Of a DNA stretch of 15,323 nucleotides, positions 1-15,323 are shown one piece after another. Each line of letters opens with the position of its first letter. Position 1 is the stretch's first letter. Made by a program: the position numbers and the translations under genes. The DNA lies in the IMG/VR virus record IMGVR_UViG_2609459790_000002, positions 1 to 15,323 of that record. One strand, given 5' to 3'. This stretch comes from a virus. Its lineage: Duplodnaviria > Heunggongvirae > Uroviricota > Caudoviricetes. The notes beneath the pieces were generated by a model. It worked only from the letters and a program-made list of their open reading frames with translations, had not been told where the DNA came from and did not search any database.

Positions 1-8
1 GGCCCGCG

Positions 9-58
<50 letters not shown>

Positions 59-681
59 ATCCCCGCATAGTCATCATCACAGATTTCAATGACATCACCT
101 GGTACATGGCGAAGCCCTTCGGCACCCACGCTGAAGTCCACGGTCTGCGTTTCCAGCAGTTCCGTTTTAATCAGCCACAGCCCGGCTCGGTGCGCCTGCC
201 CCCGCCTGGTACAGCCAAAGGCATCCATCTTCGTGACGTTACGACCGTAACGGGCAATGGCCTGCGTGTCCTCCACAAGCTCTGTCGCCGTCTCCCAGCC
301 GTTATCCGGGTCAATCCAGTTCACCTCAACGGCATTATGGCGGTCCTTCAGGGCGCTGAAGCTGTAGCGGAACGGCGCGCCATCATCCGGCATCACCACA
401 TTACTGCGGTTATAGGTCCACACCTTATCTGATGGTCGGTCCTGCACGAACGTCAGCGTCTGCCCGTTCCATACCGGCATACAGCGCATCGCCGAGCAGA
501 AATCACTGAGAACATCCCACGCCTTACGCTGTGTGGTCAGCCAGGCATTACAGGTGATGCGCGGCTCCGTGCCGCCAAAACCGTCCGGCACCGACTGGTC
601 GCAACACTGGCCGATGACATACAGCGCCCATTTATCCACATCTGCCGCACCAAGACGTTTACCCATGCCGTAGCGCGGGTG
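59..681 (-). pseudogene. Internal fragment of a lambda J-like tail tip / host-specificity protein (no start, no stop in window)
   Basis: Minus-strand frame whose codons end at plus coordinates divisible by 3 is open from about 681 down to 59. Hand-translated segments: KRLGAADVDKWRLYVIGQCCDQSVPDGFGGTEPRITCNAWLTTQRKAWDVLSDFCSAMRCMPVWNGQTLTFVQDRPSDKVWTYNRSNVVMPDDGAPFRYS (361-660), NVTKMDAFGCTRRGQAHRAG (181-240), EGLRHVPGDVIEICDDDYAGISIG (59-130). I recognise this from memory as the central region of lambda gpJ. Absent from the ORF track because it has no stop codon. Confidence 0.65.
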
Positions 682-916
682 GCTGGAGATCTGTCTCGCT
701 GGCCTGCCGCAGTTCTTCAACTTCCCGGCGCAGCTTTTCGTTCTCAATTTCAGCATCCCTTTCGGCATACCATTTTATGACGGCGGCAGAATCATAAAGC
801 ACCTCATTACCCTTGCCACCGCCTCGCAGAACGGGCATTCCCTGTTCCTGCCAGTTCTGAATGGTACGGATACTCGCACCGAAAATGTCAGCCAGCTGCT
901 TTTTGTTGACTTCCAT
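659..916 (-). pseudogene. nohA: Terminase small subunit Nu1 homologue, truncated after about 79 conserved residues (Qin nohA/nohQ type)
   Basis: Track ORF MEVNKKQLADIFGASIRTIQNWQEQGMPVLRGGGKGNEVLYDSAAVIKWYAERDAEIENEKLRREVEELRQASETDLQP matches the lambda Nu1 N-terminus as I recall it (winged-helix DNA-binding part), then diverges into PALRHG-stop at about nt 680. ATG at 914-916 lies immediately downstream of cosB as in lambda. Confidence 0.8.
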
Positions 917-940
917 TGTTCATTCCACGGACAAAAACAG

Positions 941-1140
941 AGAAAGGAAACGACAAAGGCCAAAAAGCCCGCTTTCAGCACCTGTCGTTTCCTTTCTTTT
1001 CAGGGGGTATTTTAAATAAAAACATTAAGTTACGACGAAGAAGAACGGAAACACCTTAAACCGGAAAATTTTCATAAATAGCGAAAACCCGCGAGGTCGC
1101 CGCCCCGTAACCTGTCGGATCACCGGAAAGGACCCGTAAA
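941..1140 (-). other. Lambda-type cos site: cosB (R1, R2, R3 gpNu1 boxes) and cosN with the 12-nt cohesive-end sequence
   Basis: Minus strand reads GGGCGGCGACCT (plus 1094-1105), the lambda cohesive end. Flanked on one side by the CGTAACCTGTCGGATCACCGGAAAGGACCCGT lambda right-end sequence, on the other by CGCGGGTTTTCGCTATTTATGAAAATTTTCCGG. R3-like box at plus 1042-1054, R2-like 984-997, R1-like 941-954 (CGTTTCC(N)TTCT type). Recognised from memory of the lambda genome ends. Confidence 0.75.
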
Positions 1141-1304
1141 GTGATAATGATTATCATCTACATATCACAACGTGCGTGGAGGCCATCAAACCACGTCAAA
1201 TAATCAATTATGACGCAGGTATCGTATTAATTGATCTGCATCAACTTAACGTAAAAACAACTTCAGACAATACAAATCAGCGACACTGAATACGGGGCAA
1301 CCTC

Positions 1305-1538
1305 ATGTCAACGAAGAACAGAACCCGCAGAACAACAACCCGCAACATCCGCTTTCCTAACCAAATGATTGAACAAATTAACATCGCTCTTGAGCAAAAA
1401 GGGTCCGGGAATTTCTCAGCCTGGGTCATTGAAGCCTGCCGCCGGAGACTGTGCTCAGAAAAAAGAGTTTCTTCTGAAGCAAACAAAGAAAAGAGTGACA
1501 TTACTGAATTGCTCAGAAAACAGGTCAGACCAGATTGA
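1305..1538 (+). CDS. ynfO: Small basic prophage protein (YnfO-like), 77 aa
   Basis: ATG at 1305, first gene after cos; position matches the Qin gene order nohA-ynfO-ydfO. Arg/Thr-rich N-terminus. Symbol assigned by synteny and recollection, not by search. Confidence 0.55.
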   Translation: MSTKNRTRRTTTRNIRFPNQMIEQINIALEQKGSGNFSAWVIEACRRRLCSEKRVSSEANKEKSDITELLRKQVRPD

Positions 1539-1595
1539 AGCAATTTAGATAATCGTGCAGACTACGCCCCCTCATATCACATGGAAGGTTTATCT

Positions 1596-2006
1596 ATGGA
1601 TCAGGTAGTCATTTTTAAACAAATATTTGATAAAGTTCGAAACGATTTAAACTATCAATGGTTTTATTCTGAGCTAAAACGTCACAATGTCTCACATTAC
1701 ATTTACTATTTAGCCACAGAGAATGTTCATATTGTATTAAAAAATGATAATACAGTGTTATTAAAGGGCCTAAAAAACATTGTGTCTGTCAAATTTTCAA
1801 AGGATAGGCATCTTATAGAAACGACCTCTAATAAGCTGAAATCCAGAGAGATCACATTTCAGGAATACAGAAGAAACCTTGCTAAAGCAGGAGTTTTTCG
1901 GTGGGTTACAAATATCCACGAACAAAAAAGATATTACTATACCTTTGATAATTCATTACTATTTACTGAAAGCATCCAGAAAACTACACAGATCTTACCA
2001 CGCTAA
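1596..2006 (+). CDS. ydfO: DUF1398-family prophage protein (YdfO-like), 136 aa
   Basis: Track ORF 1581-2006. The ATG at 1596 has a GGAAGG SD 7 nt upstream (1584-1589) whereas 1581 has none, giving 136 aa. Synteny with Qin ydfO. Confidence 0.6.
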
Positions 2007-2157
2007 ACCATAACGTCCGGCTTCTCTCACTCCTGAGCCGGACTGCATTGGTTTAATAAAAACCATCAACAATTGTGATTTAGATATTCGGAACCATTCA
2101 AATATAACAAAACCCCGTAAAAACGAGGTTTATGGATAAATTTTATTATTGAATACA

Positions 2158-2334
2158 TCAGATTAAATTAATCTTGACATCATAGCTTTCAAGACCCGTC
2201 ATTTTTTCCCGTGCGGTAAACTGAATACTGGTAACTTCTTTCCCGGTCTTTTTCTTAAGTTCAATAATTTTTTTTGTTATATATTCAGAAATATCTGCTT
2301 CTGCTTTTGTTTTTAAGTTTTCAATATTCATCAT
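2158..2334 (-). CDS. gnsB: GnsA/GnsB-family small protein, 58 aa (missed by ORF track, under 60 aa)
   Basis: Hand translation of minus strand: MMNIENLKTKAEADISEYITKKIIELKKKTGKEVTSIQFTAREKMTGLESYDVKINLI, stop TGA at 2158-2160. AAGAGGAA SD 6 nt upstream of tandem ATG ATG (2329-2334). The FTAREKMTGLESYDVK core is the GnsA/GnsB signature as I recall it. Start could be the second ATG (2331). Confidence 0.7.
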   Translation of the reverse strand: MMNIENLKTKAEADISEYITKKIIELKKKTGKEVTSIQFTAREKMTGLESYDVKINLI

Positions 2335-2502
2335 TTCCTCTTTTAGTCTGTTATGACTTTCCAGTTACACAGTAAGTCGATTATATGGTGCAAACGTGTA
2401 AAAGATAAGATGAAACATCGCAATAATCAACATACGATAGTCTAAATTTTACACAAACAGACAAAGAGAATTTTCCTGAATTATCAATGCAATAGCATCA
2501 AA

Positions 2503-2733
2503 TCAACTCAAGAGCCTTATTGCTGCTTCCAGAATTTCTTCTGAAGTAACATGTCGATCCGCGGCTACATAAATGACTTTATGATCTCCGGTCAGAGATG
2601 GAAACCCTGCGGCCATTACAGTAAGGTGTGTTTTTTCGCCATTTGGATATTCACGCATGATGGTGTTAACTCCAGTCATCGCTGGCACTACCACTGCTGG
2701 TTCAGAGTTAAAAAAAACTATGATTTTTTTCAT
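2503..2733 (-). CDS. ynfN: Small hypothetical prophage protein (YnfN-like by position), 76 aa from ATG
   Basis: Track ORF 2503-2775 begins at a TTG; the first ATG is at 2731-2733 (MKKIIVFFNSEPAVVV...). Located between gnsB and cspI as ynfN is in Qin. Start codon is uncertain. Confidence 0.45.
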   Translation of the reverse strand: MKKIIVFFNSEPAVVVPAMTGVNTIMREYPNGEKTHLTVMAAGFPSLTGDHKVIYVAADRHVTSEEILEAAIRLLS

Positions 2734-3004
2734 GATGTTACCGTAGTATGTGAGTATCCATCGAATAGACACCAAGCAAAAAAGCTCCCGAAGGAGCCTT
2801 CATTTTCACTTTTTTAAATCCAACGACAGACGGCTGGCATTTAAGTATTGTGAAATATTATCAAATGTAATCATCATTGATTTACAAAAGATACATTTTG
2901 CCCCGAAAGGATTCATGTCAGAAACATCAAAAGATGATGTTCTATACTGGGAACCATGACAACACGGGCATCTAAAGTGAATATGGTTTGTAATATTGTC
3001 TACC

Positions 3005-3217
3005 TCAAAGCGCCACTACATGAACAGCGGCAGGACCTTTAGGTCCGTTCTCAATACCAAATTCAACTTCCTGATTCTCAGTTAATGTTTTGAAATCGTT
3101 GCTCTGAATTGCTGAGAAATGGACAAACACATCTTTGCTGCCATCTTTCGGCGTGATGAAACCAAAACCTTTTTCAGGGTTAAACCATTTCACTAAACCA
3201 GTCATTTTGTTAGACAT
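3005..3217 (-). CDS. cspI: Cold-shock protein, CspA family, 70 aa
   Basis: [70 protein letters not shown] carries RNP1 (KGFGFI) and RNP2 (VFVHF) motifs. AAGG SD 8 nt upstream of the ATG. Sequence and position match Qin cspI. Confidence 0.9.
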
Positions 3218-3579
3218 AATTATTACCTTTTGAAGAAATTAGCCCTTGGGCAGAATGGTCCGAAAAAAAATATCAGAGAGAAAAACCAACAAGGAAATCT
3301 CAAGAGGTACAAATAATAAAATTATAACAATGACTGCTTCAGATAAATTTGTAACAAACCAGAACACCATTAACGCATGATTAACCACCCATAGCAAGGA
3401 TTACTTTTGTAAAGAAAAACACAGCAATGAAAGAATAGCTTTATTTATTAATAAAACGTGTCATTCTGATTAAGACCTTTTATCTTACCCTTAAGATTTC
3501 AGGAATTTTGGCTCATGGAAGAGTCCTTTTTATTTAAATTTTACATTCCGCGATGTAAATGTTCCGATTTAATATTACC

Positions 3580-4603
<1,024 letters not shown>

Positions 4604-4607
<4 letters not shown>

Positions 4608-4915
4608 AGATATTTATGATGAGGACGCTCGTGCTTATTGGCAGGATTTTCAATCTTAAAGGAGTACTGATGCTGCAGATAAGACTCAACTTTTTCTGAC
4701 AATTTTTCTGCTACTTCCAGGAAGACTTGCCGGACGCTCCTTCTGGCTGCTGCCTCATAAAACTCCAGCGCAGCTCCTTCAACACGGTCCATGGCGACAT
4801 CCAGGTCAAAAATTTCACCGTCAAAGCGTTCTTTGTCCTGTAAGGCTACAGTTACCGTAACTTTATTCTCAAAATTACGGACTCCTTTCACAACCAGTTC
4901 ATAGTCTTGAGTCAT
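4604..4915 (-). CDS. ydfR: Lysis-cassette accessory protein (YdfR / DUF1327-like), 103 aa
   Basis: ATG at 4913-4915 with an AGGAGA SD 8 nt upstream. Sits between holin and endolysin as in Qin. Function unknown. Confidence 0.65.
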
Positions 4916-4919
4916 TGGA

Positions 4920-5135
4920 TTACTCTCCTCTCGCAGCCTTACGCCTGTCTTCTTTAATCTTGAAATAAAGATTTGTCAGATACGTCAGCAGGCCAAAAAC
5001 CAGGCTACCCAGCACACCGATTGCAGCCCACTGTGACGGAGTTACTTTATCGAGTAACTGCAATGCCCAGAAACCAGCATTACCCGCCGATGTGCCATAG
5101 GCAACACCTGTTGTTAACTTATCCATTGATTTCAT
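4920..5135 (-). CDS. essQ: Class II holin (phage 21 S-like) with dual-start motif, 71 aa
   Basis: [71 protein letters not shown] has two TM segments. Met1-Lys-Ser-Met4 is a holin/antiholin dual start. GGTGAGGA SD directly upstream of the ATG at 5133-5135. The track ORF extends to 5210 without SD support. Confidence 0.8.
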
Positions 5136-5354
5136 ATCCTCACCCCGATGTACACGGATGGTGCAATATGTTTGAAAAGATCGGAGTCTACGGGGTAGTT
5201 TTGACAGCACACGTTGTTCTCAACGGCGCTAAAAAAACATACACATTAAAAATGTGGGTAATTATTTTGAAAGAAAGTCATATATAAAATAATAATACGA
5301 GAAATGTTTTCATATTTAGTGTACTGTATACGGCCATTTATACAGGAAAAGCCT

Positions 5355-5525
5355 ATGTCAGAACGTAAAAACTCAAAATCACGCCGTAATTATCTCGTTA
5401 AATGTTCCTGCCCAAACTGCACCCAAGAGTCAGAACACAGTTTTTCAAGAGTACAAAAAGGTGCCCTTTTGATCTGCCCTCATTGCAACAAAGTATTCCA
5501 GACAAATCTTAAAGCTGTAGCCTGA
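5355..5525 (+). CDS. Small zinc-ribbon protein, 56 aa (CxxC...CxxC), possibly the Qin YnfU-type small protein
   Basis: MSERKNSKSRRNYLVKCSCPNCTQESEHSFSRVQKGALLICPHCNKVFQTNLKAVA has two CxxC pairs (CPNC, CPHC). AGGAAAA SD 8 nt upstream of the ATG at 5355. Track ORF 5304-5525 is the longer version. Confidence 0.5.
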   Translation: MSERKNSKSRRNYLVKCSCPNCTQESEHSFSRVQKGALLICPHCNKVFQTNLKAVA

Positions 5526-5577
5526 TTGATTTTATTAGTAACAAGTATTTTTTATATTTTAATAATATATTTAAAGC

Positions 5578-5607
5578 AGATAATAAAAAACCCGCCTGAG
5601 CGGGTTT
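5578..5607 (-). terminator. Rho-independent terminator (minus-strand oriented), between the Zn-ribbon ORF and cspB
   Basis: Stem AAACCCGC (5588-5595) / GCGGGTTT (5600-5607) with a 4-nt loop. On the minus strand it is followed by TTTTTTATTAT; the plus-strand side has a weaker U tract. Confidence 0.55.
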
Positions 5608-5888
5608 GAGATTGTGGTGCTTTTTGTGGGAGTCATCCACTTACGCACTTTGTTTTGCCATGCCAGCAGTTAGCTTCTGCTGTAAAACTATTCATGCAGC
5701 AAACCTGCACTTCACCACAATGGTTAGCATACTTTTCCTGATTAAGATTTTGCCAAATATGCTAGCCATTGTTTCATGTATTGGACCTCCTTACTTTTTA
5801 TTAAAGAGATCCAATATTCACTACTCTGTCCGTATCTCTACTCAGGCATCAGCCTTCTTCGTTATCGTATACAGACGAGCGATGAATT

Positions 5889-6104
5889 TTAATCAGTAAT
5901 GATGACATTTGCTGCTGCAGGACCTTTAGCACCACTCTCTATAGAGAAGGTAACCTTTTGACCTTCAAATAAGGTTCGATAATTATCATTCTGAATCGCA
6001 GAAAAATGCACAAACACATCTTTACTACCATCAACAGGAGAAATAAAGCCGAAACCTTTATCAGCGTTAAACCATTTTACTAAACCAGTCATTTTATTTG
6101 ACAT
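5889..6104 (-). CDS. cspB: Cold-shock protein CspB, 71 aa
   Basis: [71 protein letters not shown] with RNP1/RNP2 motifs. AAGGAA SD 7 nt upstream of the ATG at 6102-6104. Long AT-rich 5' leader region as in csp genes. Confidence 0.9.
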
Positions 6105-6404
6105 TCTACATTCCTTAACTTGAGCCTTTCGGCATAAATGGTTTGCATAACAGAAACGACTTCGTACTTAATTGGAGAGACTCAAAGAAGGAATAAGTGA
6201 ATAACACCTGAAATGAGAACTGCTTTAGTAAACTACTTCGTATATCGTCTGTTCTTCAAACCGACGCAATCATTAACGCATAGTTGAACATATGAAGCAA
6301 TGTTTATTTTAGACATCCAGCCATCTTCAACCCCATCAAAAAACTATAGCTTTCTTCAGGAACGTGTGTATAGTGCGCCAAGTTATCAGTATTAAGGAAT
6401 TTTT

Positions 6405-6617
6405 TTGTCCCGTAAAATGACAGGAATTGTCAAAACCTTTGACGGCAAAAGCGGCAAGGGTCTTATCACCCCATCCGATGGTCGTATCGATGTCCAGCTT
6501 CATGTTTCAGCGCTCAATCTCCGCGATGCAGAAGAAATTACCACCGGATTACGCGTGGAATTTTGCCGGATAAATGGTCTGCGTGGCCCTTCAGCTGCCA
6601 ATGTTTACCTTTCATGA
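6405..6617 (+). CDS. cspF: Cold-shock-protein-family paralogue CspF, 70 aa (TTG start)
   Basis: [70 protein letters not shown]. First codon is TTG at 6405 with an AAGGAA SD 5 nt upstream. Divergent from cspB. RNP motifs are degenerate, as in CspF/CspH. Confidence 0.85.
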
Positions 6618-6671
6618 GCTATATTAAAGCTTTAATTTCAGGCCCCATCGGATCACACATGGAGAGTTTTT

Positions 6672-6761
6672 ATGAATAACCCCGTCTGTCTTGATGACTG
6701 GTTGATTGGCTTTAAAAGCTTATGCTGTACTTTGGCCGTAATAGCTCTGCTAATAATATAA
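6672..6761 (+). CDS. Candidate 29-aa small hydrophobic protein (speculative)
   Basis: ATG at 6672 preceded by GGAGAG (6661-6666) with a 5-nt spacer. [29 protein letters not shown] ends in a hydrophobic stretch. Lies between cspF and the downstream terminator. No homology could be checked. Confidence 0.25.
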
Positions 6762-6907
6762 TAAGCAGACTCATTGTGTTTAGGGACATTGTACTGGAAG
6801 AAAACATTTTAAACATCAGGCAAATAACCAAGTCACCAGCTAAATAATAAGTTAACAGACATGAGTCCCGGGATGAGATTCAACATTACCATTGCCCCAT
6901 TTAAAGC

Positions 6908-6946
6908 ACAAAACCCGCTCATCAGCGGGTTTTCTACTTTTTCTTA
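6908..6946. terminator. Bidirectional rho-independent terminator (cspF terminator on plus strand; tR'-like on minus strand)
   Basis: Stem AAACCCGC (6911-6918) / GCGGGTTT (6925-6932) with a 6-nt loop. Plus strand continues TTTTCTACTTTTTCTT; minus strand continues TTTTGTGCTTT. Lies about 40-60 nt downstream of the predicted late promoter. Confidence 0.6.
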
Positions 6947-6978
6947 ACGTCGGGTATACAAAGCCCATCGTTGAAAAA

Positions 6979-7007
6979 ATTTTATCCATATTTTTTGAAA
7001 AATGCAA
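6979..7007 (-). promoter_or_regulatory. PR'-like sigma70 late promoter immediately downstream of Q (TTGCAT-N17-TAAAAT)
   Basis: On the minus strand: -35 TTGCAT (plus 7002-7007), 17-nt spacer, -10 TAAAAT (plus 6979-6984). Located 30-60 nt after the quuQ stop, the canonical place for the Q-modified late promoter in lambdoid phages. Confidence 0.5.
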
Positions 7008-7038
7008 ACATCATGTCGCCATCTTCAGCAAAAATCAT

Positions 7039-7791
7039 TTATCTCGTCACCTTCCTCAATTGCGCTTCCGCGTATGCTTCTTCCTGCCAGCACTTTGTTA
7101 CCAGTTTACCAATGACGTCCGCATACCCCTTATACCACTGATAATCGGTCAGGTCTGGTACCAGCTTCTGGACATGACGTCGTGCCAGCGTGGTCGGTAA
7201 ACGACTAAACCGGTTTCCATTACAACGCCCACAAATCTTATATACCGGTACGCCATGAAACCGGGTTCTTTTTTCATCCAGAACAATCCCTTTACCCTTA
7301 CACCCTCTGCACGCTGTGCTGGCTTCGCCCTTACCATGGCAATGCTGACATAGTTCCTTCACCCATTCTTCCTTGATTACAGATTCCCCGCGTCTGTAGT
7401 GTTTCACCACTTCGCGCAATACATTATAAAATCCCGTACCTGAACAATGCTCACAGCGAGCCTTACTTGCCGCAGACCTGGAGTAATCAGCAAAGGCAAA
7501 ACTCACGAGGTAAGGAATAATCTGTAACCGGATTTCTTCACTCAATTTGTTCAATGTCGGGTTATCCAGTGCCATCGCGTAATTTAGCAGGCCTTCAATC
7601 GCAAACTGAGGGTCCTGAACACCAACTTTTGCCAGAAATAAGGCCAACCCAAGTGGTGCTTTCGACTGCACCATCCCCTGCGCTGCCATTACATCCGTAA
7701 TTGTTAAACAACCGGTGCCTGTCGCTGGAGCGTCATCGCTCAATTTTGGAGATTTTGGGGAGTAATATTTTGGTAAGGCTTCAAGGTTCAT
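7039..7791 (-). CDS. quuQ: Late-gene antiterminator Q (phage 82/21-type) with four CxxCxGxG zinc-finger repeats, 250 aa
   Basis: ATG at 7789-7791 (MNLEALPKYY...) with a GGAG SD about 7 nt upstream. Track ORF extends to 7821 but would overlap the upstream gene by 17 nt. Contains CEHCSGTG, CQHCHGKG, CRGCKGKG, CGRCNGNR. Position between ydfU and the late promoter matches Q. Confidence 0.8.
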   Translation of the reverse strand: MNLEALPKYYSPKSPKLSDDAPATGTGCLTITDVMAAQGMVQSKAPLGLALFLAKVGVQDPQFAIEGLLNYAMALDNPTLNKLSEEIRLQIIPYLVSFAFADYSRSAASKARCEHCSGTGFYNVLREVVKHYRRGESVIKEEWVKELCQHCHGKGEASTACRGCKGKGIVLDEKRTRFHGVPVYKICGRCNGNRFSRLPTTLARRHVQKLVPDLTDYQWYKGYADVIGKLVTKCWQEEAYAEAQLRKVTR

Positions 7792-7804
7792 GCTCGTTCT
7801 CCAC

Positions 7805-8854
7805 TTACGCCAGTACGCCAATTGCCAGCGCGCGATCGATAAAACGAAATATCAGCTCCAGTTGGGAGCCATACTTATCTTCAAATGCCACTGTATCCGT
7901 ATGCAGCTCGTTGTGATGCTTTCTGCACAAAGGCAACACAAAGAGATCATGTGCTTTTGTTCCCATTCCGCCCTGCCCGTGACCAATCAGATGATGCGGA
8001 TCGTCGGCTGGCATACCGCAGCAAGCACACGGCTGTGTCTTAACCCAACGTGTGTATTTCTCCTTAACCCAGCGGCGACGTTTAGGCAGCTTCATGAAAG
8101 ATTCCGGAGACTCTGGATCAACGGTGATGCTTACCACCGTCTTTTCCTGTGGTGATTTTTGTTGCTGGTGGGCGTAAGGCAACGGTGCAAGATTTTTTGT
8201 GCGTTGTTTCAATATGCTGGTGGCGGTCTGCTCTCCCGGTACGATGTCGCTTTCGCGGTACACCGAGCAGATTTTTTCCGCTGGTAATCCCAGCGAACGA
8301 CGCGATACAGCCTCAGGTAGTGCATCCACCACCTGATTGCAGACCGCCCACCAGGATAATTCAGCCAAAGATAATTCCCGCTCCTGCGTACCGCTTATTG
8401 CGTGACGGATGACGTCAATCACCCATGCTGTCAGATTTTGTTGAGCAAGCAGCTCCAGTGATTCCGATGTCTGGTCACGCAGTTGGTTGTCGCAGTGCCA
8501 GCACAACACCATTGCGCCGGTACCATAACGGTGAATGACTGTTTCAGTGTGATGGTAATCGCCATTAGGCCACTGGCAGGATGTAACATGACGTAATAGC
8601 CAGTCGGACAATGCGCCAACGCCGCCAGCAGCACGAATCACCCGTTCGTTACTAAAAAACGGCAGCAATGTTTTGTCTTCCGCCAGCGGCTGGCGAACGG
8701 CAGGAACGACTCCGGATGGCAGATTACGCATGCTTTTTGGTTCCGGTTCCACCAGCACTCGAGGATTATGAAATATCTGTATGGATTCACGGCCCGGCTT
8801 AAGGACCACCAGCCCAAGCTCAGGCACCAGAACAGGTCTAAGTAATACCCGCAC
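7805..8854 (-). CDS. ydfU: DUF968-family prophage protein YdfU-like with C-terminal HNH-like Cys/His motif, 349 aa
   Basis: Chosen start is GTG at 8852-8854 with GGAGG 4 nt upstream, one nt after the TAA of the upstream ORF. Track ORF extends to 8893 (GTG, no SD); first ATG at 8731 has no SD. C-terminus has CACCGMPADDPHHLIGHGQGG...LCRKHHNELH. Confidence 0.65.
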   Translation of the reverse strand: MRVLLRPVLVPELGLVVLKPGRESIQIFHNPRVLVEPEPKSMRNLPSGVVPAVRQPLAEDKTLLPFFSNERVIRAAGGVGALSDWLLRHVTSCQWPNGDYHHTETVIHRYGTGAMVLCWHCDNQLRDQTSESLELLAQQNLTAWVIDVIRHAISGTQERELSLAELSWWAVCNQVVDALPEAVSRRSLGLPAEKICSVYRESDIVPGEQTATSILKQRTKNLAPLPYAHQQQKSPQEKTVVSITVDPESPESFMKLPKRRRWVKEKYTRWVKTQPCACCGMPADDPHHLIGHGQGGMGTKAHDLFVLPLCRKHHNELHTDTVAFEDKYGSQLELIFRFIDRALAIGVLA

Positions 8855-8855
8855 G

Positions 8856-9134
8856 TTACCTCCAGATCCGTTGCTGGAAAGTGCGGGACGCACGTGGTGG
8901 GCGTTCGGAATAAGGCAGCCTGACAGAGATTATCCAGTGCCGATAGTCGAGACTGAGAGCTTTCTTAACCTCGAACCCGCGCCTGCGGTAAGAATGAATC
9001 AGCCATTCGGCCTGTTCTGCAGTGCATGGAGGGTGCTGGAACCATTCAGACTTGAATGCGTGAGAATACCGCCCGTGCGTGCAGGCAAGAACGGGCGAAT
9101 TATCAGAATTGTAATATTTTGCGTTGCGTGCCAT
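8856..9134 (-). CDS. Hypothetical 92-aa prophage protein, translationally coupled to ydfU
   Basis: ATG at 9132-9134 with a GGAGAA SD 5 nt upstream. Its stop TAA (8856-8858) abuts the ydfU GTG. Protein MARNAKYYNSDNSPVLACTHGRYSHAFKSEWFQHPPC... is not recognised. Confidence 0.5.
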   Translation of the reverse strand: MARNAKYYNSDNSPVLACTHGRYSHAFKSEWFQHPPCTAEQAEWLIHSYRRRGFEVKKALSLDYRHWIISVRLPYSERPPRASRTFQQRIWR

Positions 9135-9200
9135 CGGTTTTCTCCGGTGGCACGGTGTTACTCAGCGGGAGTTCAGCCCCGCGCAAGATTGTAGATGAGT

Positions 9201-9452
9201 TTATTCTCCTGAAAAAGCAGAAAAGCCAGCTTTTATTCCGATCTCTTTCAATGCCTGTAATGAAGTGACAAACTCACCTTCGCGCAAGATAAATCCGTCC
9301 GTGACCCGAGCATCCACAAAATTAATTAACGCAGCCCCATTCTTTCGCAAACACATAATGCGGTAATGACTAACAAGATTTCCATTTTCAACGCACACAG
9401 CATAGAGGCCATCTTCACAAAAAATTTTACGCAGTTCTTCGATGTTCATCAT
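9201..9452 (-). CDS. rem: Small prophage protein Rem-like, 83 aa
   Basis: Tandem ATG ATG at 9447-9452 with a GGAAGGA SD 5 nt upstream. Its position immediately downstream of the relBE-hokD terminator matches rem in Qin. Identity by synteny and length only. Confidence 0.55.
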   Translation of the reverse strand: MMNIEELRKIFCEDGLYAVCVENGNLVSHYRIMCLRKNGAALINFVDARVTDGFILREGEFVTSLQALKEIGIKAGFSAFSGE

Positions 9453-9565
9453 CAGAATCCTTCCGGATAATTAGCTCTCCCCTTTAAGGGACCATCCCTC
9501 TTATCCCTGCGCGCTACTTAAGTATTTTTGATTCTATTCCGGCACCGTCCAGAACTTCAAACGCG

Positions 9566-9600
9566 TTGAAAATAAAAACAAAAACCCGCCGAAGCGGGTT
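9566..9600 (-). terminator. Rho-independent terminator of the relB-relE-hokD operon
   Basis: Stem AACCCGC (9583-9589) / GCGGGTT (9594-9600) with a CGAA loop. On the minus strand it is followed by TTTTTGTTTTTATTTT. About 68 nt downstream of the hokD stop. Confidence 0.65.
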
Positions 9601-9668
9601 AAGTGCGGGTGCGTTGAGGATGCCTGCCACATCAGAGGTGGCGAGGGATTTCTCCCCCGCCGGGTCTC

Positions 9669-9824
9669 TTACTCCTCAGGTTCGTAAGCTGTGAAGACAG
9701 CGACCTCCGTCTGGCCGGTTCGGATTCGTACCTCGCAGAGGTCTTTCCTCGTTACCAGTGCCGTCACTATGACGGTTAAACAGATGACGATCAGGGCGAT
9801 TAACATCGCCTTTTGCTGCTTCAT
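9669..9824 (-). CDS. hokD: Hok-family type I toxin HokD (RelF), 51 aa (missed by ORF track, under 60 aa)
   Basis: Hand translation: MKQQKAMLIALIVICLTVIVTALVTRKDLCEVRIRTGQTEVAVFTAYEPEE. ATG at 9822-9824 with an AGGAGA SD 8 nt upstream; TAA stop at 9669-9671. Hok signature TM helix and LCE motif; third gene of the relBE operon. Confidence 0.85.
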   Translation of the reverse strand: MKQQKAMLIALIVICLTVIVTALVTRKDLCEVRIRTGQTEVAVFTAYEPEE

Positions 9825-9895
9825 AGCCTGCTTCTCCTGTCAACGCAAAGCAGAAGTGTCACCTTCGGTGCGAAACAGAGATGTCATGCTTTGGT

Positions 9896-10183
9896 TCAGA
9901 GAATGCGTTTGACCGCCTCGCTATATACTTCCGAGCGTTCTCTTTTCCCAACAGAAATCACGAAAACGACAACTTTCTCGTCTATAACCTGGTATACAAG
10001 GCGATAGCCTGAAGACCGGAGCTTAATCTTGTAACAATCAGGCATACCACGGAGCTTGTTTGCTTCAATCCGGGGTGACTCAAGTACTTCAACCAGCTTC
10101 TTTTTCAACTGTTCACGTACCGTCGAGCCCAGCTTTCGCCATTCCTTTAGTGCCCGCTCGTCAAAATCCAGAAAATACGCCAT
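9896..10183 (-). CDS. relE: Type II toxin RelE (ribosome-dependent mRNA interferase), 95 aa
   Basis: MAYFLDFDERALKEWRKLGSTVREQLKKKLVEVLESPRIEANKLRGMPDCYKIKLRSSGYRLVYQVIDEKVVVFVISVGKRERSEVYSEAVKRIL is recognised as E. coli RelE. Its ATG overlaps the relB TGA (TGATG). Confidence 0.92.
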   Translation of the reverse strand: MAYFLDFDERALKEWRKLGSTVREQLKKKLVEVLESPRIEANKLRGMPDCYKIKLRSSGYRLVYQVIDEKVVVFVISVGKRERSEVYSEAVKRIL

Positions 10184-10422
10184 CAGAGTTCATCCAGCGT
10201 CACACGTACTGGCTTAGGATTACGAAGCCGTTCTTTCACTATCTCCACAAGTTCAGCATCTTCATCACTCAGGAGTGTCTGTTTGAACGGCAAGCGTTCA
10301 TTGTCAGCGATATACTCGAGCATGAGACGAAGCGCTTCAGAAGGAGTTACACCCATTTTTTCAAGCGCGGCGTAAGAACGCGCTTTAAGTTCATCGTCAA
10401 TACGCAGGTTAATGCTACCCAT
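10183..10422 (-). CDS. relB: Type II antitoxin RelB (RHH DNA-binding), 79 aa
   Basis: MGSINLRIDDELKARSYAALEKMGVTPSEALRLMLEYIADNERLPFKQTLLSDEDAELVEIVKERLRNPKPVRVTLDEL is recognised as E. coli RelB. AGAGGTG SD upstream of the ATG at 10420-10422. Confidence 0.92.
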   Translation of the reverse strand: MGSINLRIDDELKARSYAALEKMGVTPSEALRLMLEYIADNERLPFKQTLLSDEDAELVEIVKERLRNPKPVRVTLDEL

Positions 10423-10475
10423 GTCTTACACCTCTTGTAATTACAAATGTCATTACAAGTATCGCACTACAACAT
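10423..10475 (-). promoter_or_regulatory. relBE promoter/operator region (relO) with TTGTAAT-type repeats
   Basis: Directly upstream of relB: CTTGTAATTACAAATGTCATTACAAG contains inverted and direct TTGTAAT / ATTACAA repeats, consistent with the RelB-RelE-bound operator. Confidence 0.55.
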
Positions 10476-10571
10476 GCTTAGGGCAAGTCACGAAGGAAGT
10501 CAGAAAGTAGTCGTAAGAACGGTGATCACTGTCCGCTTTGTGCCAGAAGCGGATGTTACTTCTTGCATATT

Positions 10572-11483
10572 TCAATTTTCTTCTCCCCACAGCGGTGTAT
10601 CTCCTAACGCTTTAGCAATAAAATCAACAAAGCTGCGAACCTTGAAAGGAATACGGATCGCGCTGGGATAAACAGCCTGAATAGTAAGTTCAGTCGTCCG
10701 GTATGCTGGCAGCAGCTTTATCAGCTTGCCCTGCTTAATATGCTCGCCAAAAACAAAGTTGGGCCCGTAAGCAATGCCTGTTCCGGCCAGTACGGATTCA
10801 AGAAGCAACTGAATGTTATTGGCAGTCATACGGCATGGGCCTTCAATACTGTGCGGCCTGCCTTGTGCATCATAAATCGTCCAGTCTCCCGCTGAAACCG
10901 CCTGGCTGAACGCCAGTCGAGGCGCACGGGAAAGATCATCCGGCGTCTCTGGTGTGCCATGTTTTTTCAAATACTCCGGTGAAGCGCACAAAACCATCCT
11001 GCAAGGTGCCAGCCGCCGCGTAACCAGTGTCGGATCCTCAAAACGCCCAACTCGGATGGCAACATCGATTCGATTTTCGAGCAGATCGGCGTATTTATCC
11101 TCCAGTACAACGTCCAGACTGACCTCCGGAAATTGCTCCAGGTAGCGTGATACGATCCTACCAAGATGCATTGCACCGAAGGCGACCGGTGCTGCAACGC
11201 GAAGCAACCCCTTCGGTGTTTTCTGAACATCACTGGCTTCCCGGTTCGCATCCTCAAGAACCTCAAGAATAACTTTGCAACGTTCATAATACCGCTCACC
11301 GGCATCCGTCAGGCTAAGACGGCGTGTTGAACGCTGAAGAAGTCGTACATTTAGATCAGATTCTATAGCGCTGACATGCTTTCCTGCCATTGCAGCCGAA
11401 AGCTTAAAACGTCTCGCGGCGGCGGCGAAACTGCCTTCATCCACTGCCGCGATAAAAATCTGCATGCTGGTGAACCTGTCCAT
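10572..11483 (-). CDS. LysR-family transcriptional regulator (LTTR), 303 aa
   Basis: N-terminal wHTH signature MDRFTSMQIFIAAVDEGSFAAAARRFKLSAAMAGKHVSAIESDLNVRLLQRSTRRLSLTDAGERYY followed by a substrate-binding domain. Divergent from the adjacent hydrolase gene. Confidence 0.85.
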   Translation of the reverse strand: MDRFTSMQIFIAAVDEGSFAAAARRFKLSAAMAGKHVSAIESDLNVRLLQRSTRRLSLTDAGERYYERCKVILEVLEDANREASDVQKTPKGLLRVAAPVAFGAMHLGRIVSRYLEQFPEVSLDVVLEDKYADLLENRIDVAIRVGRFEDPTLVTRRLAPCRMVLCASPEYLKKHGTPETPDDLSRAPRLAFSQAVSAGDWTIYDAQGRPHSIEGPCRMTANNIQLLLESVLAGTGIAYGPNFVFGEHIKQGKLIKLLPAYRTTELTIQAVYPSAIRIPFKVRSFVDFIAKALGDTPLWGEEN

Positions 11484-11595
11484 AACTTACCACCATTCGA
11501 TAATCAGAGTATCGGCTGTCGACACAATTACGCTGATTATCATCACTCATGACAGCAATTACCATTACCTTAATGACATGAAGAGGCATGAGACG

Positions 11596-12756
11596 ATGAA
11601 AATTAAGGTGAATGGAACGGGTATCCACATTGAGCAACAGGGCAGCGGTGAAATTGCACTGGTATTTTTGCATTATTATGGCGGTTCATCCCGTACATGG
11701 GAGAGCGTGATAAGTCAGTTACCTGACCACTACCGCACAGTTGCAATCGACCACCGGGGCTGGGGGGGCTCAGACGCACCTAAATCAGGATACCGAATTG
11801 GTGACCTTGCTCGGGATGCCGAAGGGGTTATTTCAGCGCTTGAGCTTAAACGCTACATTCTTATTGGCCATTCGATGGGGGGAAAAGTTGCCCAACTGAT
11901 GGCGTCGCGTCGGCCTGCAGGTCTTGAAGGCCTGATGCTTATCGCTCCCTCTCCACCTTCACCTATGCGTCTCACGCCTGAGCAGCGCGATACGTTATCC
12001 AGCGCATATAACAGCCGCGAATCTGTCGGCTTTGTGATTGATAATGTCCTGACAGCGGGGGCACTAAGTTCTGCTCTGCGTGAACAGGTAATCGAGGACA
12101 GTTTGAGGGCCTCATCCGAGGCCAAAGAAGGCTGGCCTAATACGGCTATCGGCGAAGACATTACCCAGGAAGTGGCCTCAATTAATGTCCCTGTGACGGT
12201 CATTTCAGGGGAGTTGGATCGTGTAGACCTTCCGGCTACTCTGCAAAGAGAATTGCTGCCCCTTATTTCACATGCATCAATGTATATTATTCCAGACGTC
12301 GGACATCTCTTGCCTCTGGAGGCCCCTACAGAGGTCGCCAGCCACCTGTTAAAATTTACAGCCGCCATTGAAGGGGGGACAGCAGTCTACCATTCGCCTG
12401 TCGAAACGATAGCCGCGTTTGATGATGCTTTCAATGCAGGCAGGGTTGATGACCTGCTGGCTCTGTTCAGTAACCGTGCCACTATGAAAATGACTGATGG
12501 TGTGGTCATCGAAAGCGATCCTGAAAAGCTTCGGGACACTTTTTTGTCACTGACATCATCCCAGCCAGTTATCAGAAACCATATCCGCTCGATCCTCTCC
12601 GCCGGTGAAATTGCTCTGCTTATTATTGACTGGACTTTGACCATAACCACCAAGGATAGAACACTGCACGAAGAGTCCGGTACAGCAACGCAGGTGTTGT
12701 TGCGAAGCGTTGACGGAGGTTGGCGGCTGCTGATTTCAAATCCATCAGGAACGTAG
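11596..12756 (+). CDS. Alpha/beta-hydrolase fused to a C-terminal NTF2-like / SnoaL-like domain, 386 aa
   Basis: ATG at 11596 with an AAGAGG SD 9 nt upstream; earlier in-frame ATGs at 11464 and 11578 lack an SD and would overlap the LysR start. Nucleophile elbow GHSMGG, HRGWGGSD motif, His in PDVGHLLPLE. The C-terminal 115 aa (AAFDDAFNAGRVDDLLALFS...WRLLISNP) is NTF2/SnoaL-like. Confidence 0.8.
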   Translation: MKIKVNGTGIHIEQQGSGEIALVFLHYYGGSSRTWESVISQLPDHYRTVAIDHRGWGGSDAPKSGYRIGDLARDAEGVISALELKRYILIGHSMGGKVAQLMASRRPAGLEGLMLIAPSPPSPMRLTPEQRDTLSSAYNSRESVGFVIDNVLTAGALSSALREQVIEDSLRASSEAKEGWPNTAIGEDITQEVASINVPVTVISGELDRVDLPATLQRELLPLISHASMYIIPDVGHLLPLEAPTEVASHLLKFTAAIEGGTAVYHSPVETIAAFDDAFNAGRVDDLLALFSNRATMKMTDGVVIESDPEKLRDTFLSLTSSQPVIRNHIRSILSAGEIALLIIDWTLTITTKDRTLHEESGTATQVLLRSVDGGWRLLISNPSGT

Positions 12757-12936
12757 TGAGTTCAGTAAGAATAGCTTGCGCTAGCAATATCGCGTGGCTG
12801 CAGAGAGGTAAGTGACATCCGCCACCACCCGCATGCCGTTTTAAGGCATGCGGTAATAACGATGAGCGCAAGATTGCTGTTATGTCTTGCTGCTTTCGGA
12901 GCGCCTGCTTTTCGCTCTTAGCGGACATTAGCATAG

Positions 12937-14499
12937 GCTATTTACCATAACGCCTCATTACGCGCACCGCCCAGACTGACTCAGCGCGTTTCTGGCATAT
13001 CCCCGGTAAAACAAGTAACAAACCACCCGAAAATGAACACCAGAAACGCGACTTAAGAATCTACCCTATGAATGGATATGCACTCAACCGAATCGATCTT
13101 GGTTTCAATCTTTTTTATCGGGATCAGGCTTCTTTTTAGGTAACTTCGGGGGCTTAACTTGCTGATGACTTTGCGTTCGGCGCGTAAGCCAGGGATGGTC
13201 AGCTTTAGGTTTAACATAGTATTTTGAGCGTAAATCAATACGGGCATTATCCACTCGTTCATGGACACTCTTTTCATCATCCAGTGGTATAGGCTCCGGG
13301 CCATCAACATACTTTTCCCAGCCCAGCGCTTTCCCGTCATACAGAACGTTAATTTCACCGTCAAAGTTCTCGCATACAGTAACAACCGAATGCCTAAGTC
13401 GATATCCCCGGCCCTCACTGCGTACCTGAAACGCACTGCTTTTGTACTGGAAAGTGAGATTTTTAGACAGAACGCGCTTCGCCTGTAGGCTGAAGATATA
13501 ACCCAGTTCCTCTTCAGAATGGTGCACATCAAGATGAGCATTATCAGTAGTACGAGGCGACGTAGCGAACCGGTTGTTATAGGCTTCAATAAAGGTCGGC
13601 AACCATGCATTTGCTGTTTCAATATCACTGATATTCTGAAGCCGCATTTCTTTGACCAGCCTGTCCTGTAGTGTCTGATTGGCGCGCTCTACCCGCCCTT
13701 TTGCCTGCGGGCTGTTGGCATGGATTGGCTCGATGCCCAGTGTCTTTATCGCACGAGTGAACTGGGTCAGCTCACCTTCCCGCTCTGGGTTATTTACCCT
13801 GAATATACTGTGTCTATCAGAGTAGAGAGCGAGCGGTACGCCATGATCATTAAGGTAACCCCGGAGGGTTTCCATGTAAGCCCGGGTTGTTTCAGCAGGC
13901 ACAAAACGCAACGCCATCAACGCACTGGTGGCATCATCAATGAAAACGATCAGTGTACATCTGGGGCCTCGATTTTCAAACCAGTCATGAGGTGAGCCAT
14001 CAATCTGGATCAGTTCACCGTAAGATGGTCGTCGCATGCGGCGTTGATATATACGGGCAATTTTACGACGGCGTTCACGCCATAACCCCTCTTCTATCAT
14101 CCACTTTCTGAGAGTTTCAACGGATAAAGATAAACCGTGTATCTCGCGCAATTTTTCGCACGCAAACGTAGGTCCAAAATCAGCGTAACGGCCTTTGAGG
14201 AGTGAAATTACTGTTGCTCTGAATTCAGTAGAAAAGGAATTATTAGGACGCTTTCCACGTCGGTGGGAAACCAGACCAGAAGGCCCTTCATTTCTATACC
14301 GTTGCACCAGACGTTTAACCTGCCGAATAGAAATGCCAATGCGTGCCGCAGCTTGTTCCTGAATAATCTGAAGTCGGTGGAGTTCCTTATGACTCATCGT
14401 AACAGTCTCTTTGATCATGAAAAATCCCCCAGAGAATTGTCTGGGGACATTTTAGAATGGTTCAAAGGGGACATTACAGCTTGGTGTTAACAATAGCCT
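12937..14499 (-). mobile_element. Insertion sequence carrying the 437-aa DDE transposase; terminal inverted repeats not resolved (ends approximate)
   Basis: Single transposase gene with about 80-170 nt flanks. The only candidate terminal match found by eye is AGGCTATT (12937-12944) against AATAGCCT (14492-14499), which is at chance level. Boundaries are therefore provisional. Confidence 0.35.
13105..14418 (-). CDS. DDE transposase with rve integrase-core domain (IS481/ISNCY-like), 437 aa
   Basis: N-terminal HTH (GISIRQVKRLVQRYRNEGPSGLVSHRRGKRP), DDE-type core (LIQIDGSPHDW..., LALYSDRHSIF, ...RVERANQTLQ) and a Lys/Pro-rich basic tail. ATG at 14416-14418 with a GGGGGA SD. Family assignment is from motif recollection only. 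Confidence 0.8.
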   Translation of the reverse strand: MIKETVTMSHKELHRLQIIQEQAAARIGISIRQVKRLVQRYRNEGPSGLVSHRRGKRPNNSFSTEFRATVISLLKGRYADFGPTFACEKLREIHGLSLSVETLRKWMIEEGLWRERRRKIARIYQRRMRRPSYGELIQIDGSPHDWFENRGPRCTLIVFIDDATSALMALRFVPAETTRAYMETLRGYLNDHGVPLALYSDRHSIFRVNNPEREGELTQFTRAIKTLGIEPIHANSPQAKGRVERANQTLQDRLVKEMRLQNISDIETANAWLPTFIEAYNNRFATSPRTTDNAHLDVHHSEEELGYIFSLQAKRVLSKNLTFQYKSSAFQVRSEGRGYRLRHSVVTVCENFDGEINVLYDGKALGWEKYVDGPEPIPLDDEKSVHERVDNARIDLRSKYYVKPKADHPWLTRRTQSHQQVKPPKLPKKKPDPDKKD

Positions 14500-14797
14500 G
14501 CTTCTCCGTGCCTTTCGGCACGTAAGAGGCTAACCTACATGTGTCTAGCATGAAATTGGCCTCAGATTAATGTTAAGCGTCTTGCAGGACGCGTAATGTT
14601 AACTGGGGCTTTTCTCTATCTGCCGTTGGTGTCCATGCCCGAGGCAGATAGCCTCAAGCACCCGCAGTCATTCTACTTAACTAAGATTTCCCCGCAAACC
14701 GTTTTTGTCCAGCACAGTAAATATCCAACTAAACCAATGGAGTTCGCTGTATTTACCGCCAGTATTCAATGCACATGACCGCCATGAACACCCCTAA

Positions 14798-15323
<526 letters not shown>

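Follow-up and report, generated by a model that had tools for sequence, protein, structure and literature searches.

YdfU, a predicted His-Me finger protein, and a conserved small gene absent from the MG1655 annotation, in the tail of the ninR block of the Qin prophage

Introduction

His-Me finger enzymes with a structural zinc, among them T4 endonuclease VII and P1 Ref, are established branch-processing nucleases of phages. Here we describe ydfU, a candidate member of this group of enzymes, and an open reading frame (ORF) of 92 amino acids (aa) directly upstream of it, in a stretch of DNA of 15,323 nucleotides (nt) that we refer to as the window (IMG/VR virus record IMGVR_UViG_2609459790_000002, positions 1 to 15,323). 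The window is the Qin cryptic prophage of Escherichia coli K-12; the 1.9 kb around the two genes showed 100% identity to C600 and J53 and found a match in 4,920 of 5,426 complete E. coli genomes. Our reading, to which we assign a probability of about 70%, is that this is the tail of the ninR block of Qin, made up of two independent genes, and that YdfU would be a DNA endonuclease acting on phage recombination or replication intermediates.

Among the closest described proteins is YbcO of the DLP12 prophage (DUF1364, PF07102; PDB 3g27). Jablonska et al. 2017 placed DUF968, the family of YdfU, together with DUF1364 in His-Me finger group 7, naming Qin YdfU and DLP12 YbcO and noting RusA and Q as neighbours of the group (PMC5714182), while Curtis et al. 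2014 had described the C-terminal zinc-finger HNH motif of DUF968 (PMC4118853) and Kaur and Subramanian 2016 predicted a nuclease role for YbcO (PMC4999995). NinG/Rap of lambda (PF05766), a branch-specific endonuclease, is also a His-Me finger protein, of group 24 (PMC5714182), and was used as the functional model for YdfU. Phage HNH nucleases tied to recombination further include P1 Ref (PF16786, PDB 3plw) and the Orf-HNH fusions of Gram-positive phages (HNHc_6, PF16784) (PMC5714182, PMC4118853). A preliminary description of the window, made from its letters alone, had offered the two genes as a module of no established function; this is true experimentally, although the HNH class had been published in 2017 (PMC5714182) and the DUF968 motif in 2014 (PMC4118853).

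Results

A predicted YbcO-like His-Me finger at the C-terminus of YdfU

A search with profile hidden Markov models, proposed as a check in the preliminary description, assigned YdfU to DUF968 (PF06147; 256.8 bits against a cut-off of 27.8, E 1.4e-76; aa 160-346 on profile positions 1-171 of 171) and matched its full length to PHROG 96, 'HNH endonuclease' (2.8e-171). Together with the recurrent gene junction described below, these matches are far beyond what chance would be expected to produce. In the Qin protein HNHc_6 came near the Pfam gathering score and stayed under it (E 6.3e-6), and RecA_dep_nuc (PF16786), the P1 Ref family, gave a weak match that was also under its gathering score (E 0.0037), both on aa 268-328; YdfU further differs from the Orf-HNH fusions in that it has no Orf/NinB-like domain. 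Among 34 diverse homologues, DUF968 was found in 34, HNHc_6 in 20 and RecA_dep_nuc in six. When a profile of the YdfU C-terminus was compared with a YbcO profile anchored on PDB 3g27, hhalign returned a probability of 89% (E 2e-6, 74 columns), with the last ~75 residues of YdfU aligned to nearly all of YbcO. In both proteins, the residue pattern is that of a zinc treble-clef whose first hairpin bears a His. They differ in that YbcO, at 96 aa, is the finger alone, whereas YdfU adds an N-terminal domain of ~190 aa with a putative zinc site and a linker of ~60 aa, and in that HH...HH..H of YdfU stands against a single His in YbcO, which ends CHDEID.

The motif of the finger reads C276-A-C-C279-G...D285-P-H287-H288...L-C310-R-K-H313-H314-N-E-L-H318. 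The preliminary description had listed this motif and a second Cys/His cluster upstream, and both are present, but the spacings that it gave were off, since the letters read G-x4-DPHH rather than x6, and 20 rather than 18 residues precede LC. We found 2,885 relatives of YdfU among 50%-identity cluster representatives and counted conservation in the best 150, aligned to the family profile. The cysteines of the finger were kept in 79/82 (C276), 66/84 (C279) and 75/87 (C310) of the sequences, with H or C at position 313 in 68/86, and the histidines in 79/88 (H287), 80/87 (H288), 77/85 (H314) and 76/83 (H318), while D303 (89/90) and P308 (84/86) were close to invariant. The representatives show the putative catalytic His on the first strand, the putative metal-ligand His on the helix and the CxxC...CxxC/H zinc pattern of His-Me fingers, and these predicted zinc and catalytic residues are kept in homologues down to ~26% identity. 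Lineages without C279 also lose C310 and position 313, yet keep every histidine, whereas H287, H288, H314 and H318 are lost together only in sequences like PdcB of phage P1, which keep the four cysteines; these opposite patterns of loss suggest that the structural zinc site is distinct from the catalytic site. The HNH-like finger of the preliminary description is thus borne out by DUF968 membership, the near-threshold HNHc_6 match, the alignment to YbcO and the conservation of its Cys and His residues in homologues. Overall, as judged from profiles and residue patterns, the C-terminal Cys/His pattern of YdfU is a His-Me (HNH) finger, an assignment that is correct and was already published.

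An AlphaFold 2 (AF2) model of YdfU, built from a 41-sequence alignment that was mostly 77-100% identical, had a mean predicted local distance difference test score (pLDDT) of 60. It showed a strand at 285-288, a strand at 306-309 and a helix at 311-319, in the beta-beta-alpha order, but with pLDDT values of 36-82 in this part. The HNH domain of Cap5, ranked third in a Foldseek search with the model, was not a significant match and was not used.

A second Cys/His cluster in the N-terminal domain of YdfU

The upstream cluster reads C93-QWPNGDY-H101-H102...L-C118-W-H-C121-D-N and is conserved in the representatives, with C93 in 80/82, C118 in 84/85, and W119 and D122 in at least 90%. His or Cys stands at position 101 in 80/84 and at position 121 in 84/85, and the choice at the two positions is complementary: 34 sequences pair H101 with C121, 25 pair C101 with H121, 11 have His at both and none has Cys at both. 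Since this exchange of Cys and His is the behaviour of metal ligands, the cluster, which the preliminary description had pointed out, reads as a putative second zinc site of the Cys3His type in the ~190-aa N-terminal domain. The AF2 model had a pLDDT below 50 over residues 91-120 and left the cluster unresolved. An internal duplication of the HNH finger (aa 80-130 against aa 268-325) was considered and rejected, as hhalign gave E 0.1 and a probability of 0.6% and only LCWHxDN and LCRKHHN lined up.

The N-terminal domain found no family in the copy of Pfam that was searched. Three YdfU-Q read-through fusions (P0123, P0124 and P0126 in our protein set) carry PF27659 in the precomputed Pfam column; this family is not part of the copy that was searched and may be a new model for the domain. 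Many database proteins (P0326, P0370, P0371, P0437, P0354, P0306) join the YdfU N-terminus to domains of tail-tip J, tail-fibre, capsid or portal proteins; we did not take these fusions as functional architectures, since they look like the scars that deletions leave in prophages undergoing decay, or like assembly chimeras.

Comparison with NinG/Rap, YbcO and P1 PdcB

YdfU and YbcO have a common slot, which lies after a small ORF, next to RusA, the Holliday-junction resolvase, and before Q. NinG/Rap holds the same position in the ninR region; in about 20 prophages of enterobacteria, including Gifsy-2 and GF-2, it comes directly after a small-ORF homologue. What YdfU shares with NinG is the slot alone, as YdfU had no match to Pfam NinG and hhalign between the two returned a probability of 16.6%; moreover, NinG loci are without RusA, whereas YdfU and YbcO loci usually have it.

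PdcB of phage P1 is a full-length homologue of YdfU (hhalign E 6e-72, 27% identity) with the same N-terminal zinc cluster, and its gene (positions 2405-3448 of the P1 locus) lies directly upstream of lpa, the late promoter activator gene, mirroring the order ydfU-Q. PdcB differs from YdfU in the finger, where DDPHH is replaced by HITPY and CRKHHNELH by CQSCQRDIE, with the Cys4 zinc site kept. The gene before it, pdcA, has no relationship to the small ORF of Qin (E 0.34).

The 92-aa ORF is a separate gene under purifying selection

The small ORF matched PHROG 1212 at 1.7e-35, with aa 27-92 on profile positions 1-66 of 66, the full length of the family. Using the Qin sequence as reference, the ratio of nonsynonymous to synonymous substitution rates (dN/dS) was 0.115 for this core (28 pairs with at least 10% protein difference) and 0.54 for the N-terminal 26 residues. 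Homologues in Escherichia and Shigella with 63-99% identity retain a frame of 90-92 codons, and all 44 distinct DNA variants were 279 nt long, although this constancy is not independent evidence that the frame is preserved, because only ORFs of 88-93 codons were extracted. A profile search with the small protein found 583 relatives across Enterobacterales, most of them 66-69 aa long and without the N-terminal extension, in prophages of Salmonella, Citrobacter, Klebsiella, Enterobacter and Kluyvera and also in phages of Yersinia, Edwardsiella, Erwinia and Hafnia.

From an 84-sequence alignment, AF2 returned a confident core of beta-alpha-beta-beta topology, with pLDDT above 90 over roughly aa 31-70. 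The N-terminal tail was predicted to be disordered (pLDDT below 50 for aa 1-21), and a basic C-terminal helix was predicted weakly. A structural search of BFVD gave a single significant match, QD1 of phage N15 (E 8.9e-4, 32% identity). N15 Orf QD1 and PY54 ORF47, of the PHROG 1212 family, share with the Qin protein the beta-alpha-beta-beta core and a WR or WG C-terminus, and differ from it in that the Qin-type protein has the additional disordered N-terminus of 26 aa. Pfam, NCBIfam and PADLOC had no family for the small ORF. In comparisons with lambda proteins of the nin region, hhalign gave E 0.22-0.76 and probabilities of at most 0.3% against NinD, NinE, NinF and NinH, NinB was not related to it, and Pfam NinE and NinF were absent from 84 members of the family. 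The homologues in phages vB_EcoS-689R5 (positions 3501-3779 of its locus) and vB_EcoS-640R1 carry the label 'toxin to Rem', which no family match or paper supports and which we disregarded.

Between ydfU and rem, the reference genome of MG1655 (NC_000913.3) leaves 346 bp without annotation. The small ORF lies there at 1644306-1644584 on the minus strand, with its start codon at 1644584, and calling it unrecognised was accurate for this reference; the NCBI Prokaryotic Genome Annotation Pipeline (PGAP) does call it in other K-12 assemblies. The 92-aa ORF is a real, separate and conserved gene under purifying selection, missing from the MG1655 reference annotation. The preliminary description had named the possibility that it is a frameshifted piece of ydfU, and this does not agree with the dN/dS values, the separately annotated short homologues and the complete N-termini of YdfU proteins.

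Neighbourhoods of the two genes

The neighbours of the small ORF were classified in 128 loci, which came from genomes of phages, from viral contigs and from a single genome of each species. The 92-aa form was always followed by YdfU after a gap of 1 nt, usually with rem 66 nt before it, and the junction TGGAGGTAA[C/T]GTG was identical in 86 related loci, which all belong to one Escherichia/Shigella lineage. Live relatives that have this block are PhiR42_1 (99% identity), mEp460_ev081 and Tritos. The 66-69-aa form was usually overlapped by the next gene by 4-25 nt, and this next gene was NinG in about 20 loci (Gifsy-2 and GF-2 among them), YbcO followed by RusA in about 11 (including mEp237, phiES15 and ST974-OXA48phi18.2), RusA followed by YdfU in three (including Chris1) and a Dcm methylase in Erwinia phage 59. 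A DUF1367 gene usually preceded the short form, with an overlap of 4 nt. YdfU homologues without a small ORF upstream were found in Ayreon, ST64B, ST101-KPC2phi6.3, YeP2, EPP-1, Vibrio phage Cla and P1. Downstream, the constant neighbour of YdfU was the late activator, Q in lambdoid phages and Lpa in P1, and RusA was adjacent to YdfU or near it in most loci of lambdoid phages; in Vibrio phage Cla, the gene downstream of the YdfU homologue was an unidentified 91-aa ORF.

The preliminary description had read the two genes as a coupled module and as the best candidate in the window for a new enzymatic system, and had suggested looking at whether the small ORF co-occurs with DUF968 across lambdoid prophages. 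Its presence proved not to be specific to DUF968, as the small family also precedes NinG, YbcO with RusA, RusA, and Dcm, and the two families did not co-occur in independent lineages as those of a two-gene module would be expected to. The exchange of downstream genes and the seven YdfU phages without the small ORF argue that there is no obligate two-gene system. Abutting or overlapping start and stop codons are the rule for every gene pair of the region, and the pair is, on this comparison of gene orders, best described as an instance of the ordinary tight packing of ninR, with two independent genes. YdfU, YbcO and NinG appear to swap in one slot beside RusA and Q, behind a shared small gene. 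The invariance of the C-terminal Trp-Arg/Gly codons of the small ORF probably comes in part from their serving as the ribosome-binding site of the next gene.

Gene order and sequence features around the pair

The preliminary description was accurate on coordinates, the GTG start, the GGAGG before it and the 1-nt gap after the stop of the 92-aa ORF, all of which are in the sequence, on the minus strand (Table 1), and this geometry is conserved in the 86 loci. The letters at the junction are ...ATC TGG AGG TAA C GTG..., in which TGG AGG, the final sense codons of the small ORF (W91-R92), contain the GGAGG. The ATG of the 92-aa ORF is preceded by GGAGAAAACCG, a ribosome-binding site of the GGAG type, in agreement with the Shine-Dalgarno sequence of its own that had been ascribed to it. 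A longer ydfU of 362 aa, from an upstream GTG (8893), appears in the program-made ORF list; the N-termini of distant homologues (MRVLL, MRALL or MKALL), down to 26% identity, align at the start of the 349-aa version, which is also the RefSeq start, so that 349 aa is right and the 362-aa ORF is a listing artefact.

RefSeq places the locus in the Qin cryptic prophage and gives the minus-strand order relB, relE, hokD, rem, 'hypothetical protein' WP_012304870.1, ydfU ('DUF968 domain-containing protein') and ydfT. The position between rem and Q was therefore given correctly in the preliminary description, and the start of ydfT 13 nt past the stop of ydfU means that the whole block is tightly packed. 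In addition to the Antiterm family, ydfT gives a match at aa 158-203 to the CXXCXGXG zinc-finger repeat of DnaJ (E 1.5e-8); in the program-made ORF list it is extended to a TTG at 7821 and overlaps ydfU, whereas its RefSeq start is the ATG at 7791.

[quoted passage not shown] A match of Rem to SocB at 14.9 bits (E 0.0099), where the cut-off is 210, was dismissed as noise. A strong terminator-like hairpin (AACCCGCTTCGGCGGGTT then a T run) lies downstream of hokD at 9583-9600 on the minus strand, and after it, upstream of rem, a promoter-like site TTGAAG-18-TAGAAT at 9531-9560 on the same strand. The hairpin and the promoter-like site suggest that the four genes from rem to ydfT could be transcribed as a unit of their own; in a promoter and terminator scan of the region, site counts were not above the shuffled expectation. 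The arrangement of rem, small ORF, ydfU and Q in its Escherichia form was also found on a 22.9-kb contig (JAGZPX010000007.1) filed under a metagenome-assembled genome of Veillonella parvula, an assignment that is probably a binning error.

Table 1 Positions in the window of the two genes, their parts and the adjoining genes.
Feature	Position	Strand	Description
ydfU (b1560)	7805..8854	-	349 aa, GTG start at 8854-8852; DUF968 / PHROG 96 His-Me finger protein
YdfU N-terminal domain, ~aa 1-190	8285..8854	-	PHROG 11007 covers aa 2-134
Second Cys/His cluster of YdfU, putative structural zinc site: C93, H101, C118, C121, then D122-N123	8486..8578	-	
Variable linker of YdfU, ~aa 194-250	8105..8275	-	pLDDT below 50, predicted disordered; gapped, indel-rich alignment columns
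C-terminal YbcO-like His-Me (HNH) domain of YdfU, ~aa 268-349	7808..8053	-	hhalign, HNHc_6, conservation
HNH core motif C276..C279..D285-P-H287-H288..D303..P308..C310..H313-H314..H318	7901-8029	-	
92-aa ORF	8856..9134	-	PGAP WP_012304870.1 'hypothetical protein'; PHROG 1212 / N15 Orf QD1 family
Conserved core of the small protein, aa 27-92	8859..9056	-	beta-alpha-beta-beta and basic C-terminal tail PRxSRTFQQRIWR
N-terminal 26-aa extension of the small protein	9057..9134	-	Escherichia/Shigella (Qin-type) form only; predicted disordered
Gene junction	8852..8863	-	GGAGG 8863-8859, TAA 8858-8856, one spacer base, ydfU GTG 8854-8852
ydfT (quuQ), Q-type antiterminator	7039..7791	-	Pfam Antiterm 4.2e-54; RefSeq annotation; 13 nt downstream of ydfU
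rem, DicA antirepressor	9201..9452	-	66 nt upstream of the 92-aa ORF

Discussion

Taken together, ydfU and the small ORF appear to form the end of the early-right (ninR) block, directly before the late antiterminator Q, with YdfU in the slot that NinG/Rap or YbcO holds in other lambdoid phages. By analogy with these occupants of the slot and with the zinc-bound His-Me enzymes named at the outset, we take YdfU to be a DNA endonuclease. The protein would consist of an N-terminal zinc domain, a disordered linker and a YbcO-like His-Me finger. Going by the family pattern, C276, C279, C310 and H313 most likely hold the structural zinc, H288, with which the first beta strand ends, is the likely general base, and H314 and H318 would hold the catalytic metal together with the acidic D285 and D303. 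We infer a zinc-stabilised endonuclease that depends on a divalent metal and would act before packaging, alongside or instead of RusA, with the N-terminal zinc domain providing recognition of a substrate or partner. The small protein is the product of a common ninR gene, the TGG AGG codons of which double as the ribosome-binding site of the next gene.

Several points weigh against YdfU as an active nuclease in this role. We found no biochemical or genetic reports on YdfU, YbcO or the small protein in the literature and no expression of ydfU or the small ORF in K-12, for which the supplements of PIRT-Seq were searched, and Qin is a cryptic prophage. The full-length homologue PdcB is non-essential in P1 and has no catalytic histidines, so that the conserved role of the family may not be cleavage, and the frequent presence of RusA beside YdfU means that it is not simply a substitute for a junction resolvase. 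A Foldseek search of PDB with the AF2 model, which is poor over the full length (pLDDT 60), found nothing below E 3, and the beta-beta-alpha fold consequently rests on profile homology. In sequence searches of PDB, YdfU alone gave no usable match and a full-length profile of 34 sequences gave none at E of 1 or lower; among the PDB comparisons, only the domain-level alignment to YbcO worked.

An alternative explanation is a dedicated system of two components, in which the small protein would serve YdfU as an inhibitor or immunity protein, a chaperone or a targeting subunit and translational coupling would fix the ratio of the two. All of the intact Qin-type loci, some 85, have the 92-aa form followed by YdfU with the 1-nt gap and the invariant junction, the 26-aa extension is confined to this YdfU-adjacent form, and across the small-ORF family the next gene is almost always that of a DNA-branch nuclease (NinG, YbcO, RusA or YdfU). 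We nevertheless consider such a system unlikely, because the Qin-type loci are one close Escherichia/Shigella lineage with 77-100% identity and count as a single evolutionary observation, and because the short forms are followed by a Dcm methylase or by nucleases of three families that are not related to each other, a pattern that speaks against a specific protein partner. The seven diverged YdfU phages without the small ORF point in the same direction, as does the short-form ORF being joined at least as tightly, by its 4-nt overlap, to the DUF1367 gene upstream, and no PADLOC, toxin-antitoxin or immunity family matched. A looser version, in which the PHROG 1212 protein is a general accessory factor (for example a branched-DNA or host-factor adaptor) for whichever of YdfU, YbcO, NinG or RusA occupies the slot, is no more probable; it would explain why, throughout Enterobacterales, the small gene is glued 5' of nuclease genes of four unrelated kinds and why the N-tail, specific to one lineage, is confined to the YdfU-adjacent form.

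It is similarly doubtful that the conserved role of YdfU and PdcB is non-catalytic, such as DNA binding or a part in late-gene activation, and lies in the N-terminal zinc domain, so that the HNH finger could be dispensed with. C93, C118, W119 and D122 are kept at least as well as the HNH residues, the N-terminal cluster is intact in PdcB-like proteins without the catalytic His, and in lambdoid phages and P1 the next gene downstream is that of the late activator, Q or Lpa. About 90% of the representatives, on the other hand, retain H287, H288, H314 and H318, implying selection on catalysis in most lineages, and the position can be explained by operon order, as NinG, YbcO and RusA also adjoin Q. 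At least one branch of the YdfU/PdcB family, to go by the residues that it has lost, does something other than cleavage.

Slightly less probable still is that YdfU is a selfish, free-standing homing endonuclease of the HNH type or an HNH protein that assists the terminase in packaging. Homing endonucleases are common among the HNH ORFs of phages, and pdcB of P1 lies two genes upstream of pacA/pacB. The gene is not beside the terminase genes in lambdoid genomes, however, and its slot before Q or Lpa is fixed in lambdoid phages of Escherichia, Salmonella, Klebsiella, Yersinia and Edwardsiella and in P1, at 26-80% identity, which looks like vertical descent and not like sporadic insertion. In addition, Pfam searches of YdfU and 34 homologues detected no homing-type DNA-binding modules, and P1 PdcB is without the catalytic histidines. 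Finally, the empty 346 bp in NC_000913.3 and the lack of a Pfam or NCBIfam family might have suggested that the small ORF is no gene and arose by chance or as what a frameshift left of ydfU; this is already refuted by the core dN/dS, the PHROG 1212 match, the confident AF2 core, the 583 homologues, which include separately annotated 66-69-aa genes beside unrelated genes, and the complete N-termini of YdfU homologues.

Compared to what was published on the fold class, our reading of YdfU as an endonuclease of the ninR slot, preceded by an independent small gene, is modestly new in its residue map with a putative second zinc site, a natural clade predicted to be catalytic-dead, an unannotated gene under selection and a pattern of slot swapping, and it overturns no current understanding. 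MG1655, the best-annotated bacterial genome, is without an entry for a selected gene of 92 codons, and purifying selection and hundreds of homologues justify a gene record between ydfU and rem. YdfU itself is a y-gene of known fold class for which the two putative zinc sites, the set of predicted catalytic histidines and the 'dead' variants of PdcB amount to a mutagenesis plan. For the lambdoid phages, the swapping of YdfU, YbcO and NinG in one slot frames the question of what a second branch-processing nuclease adds to a phage that already has RusA.

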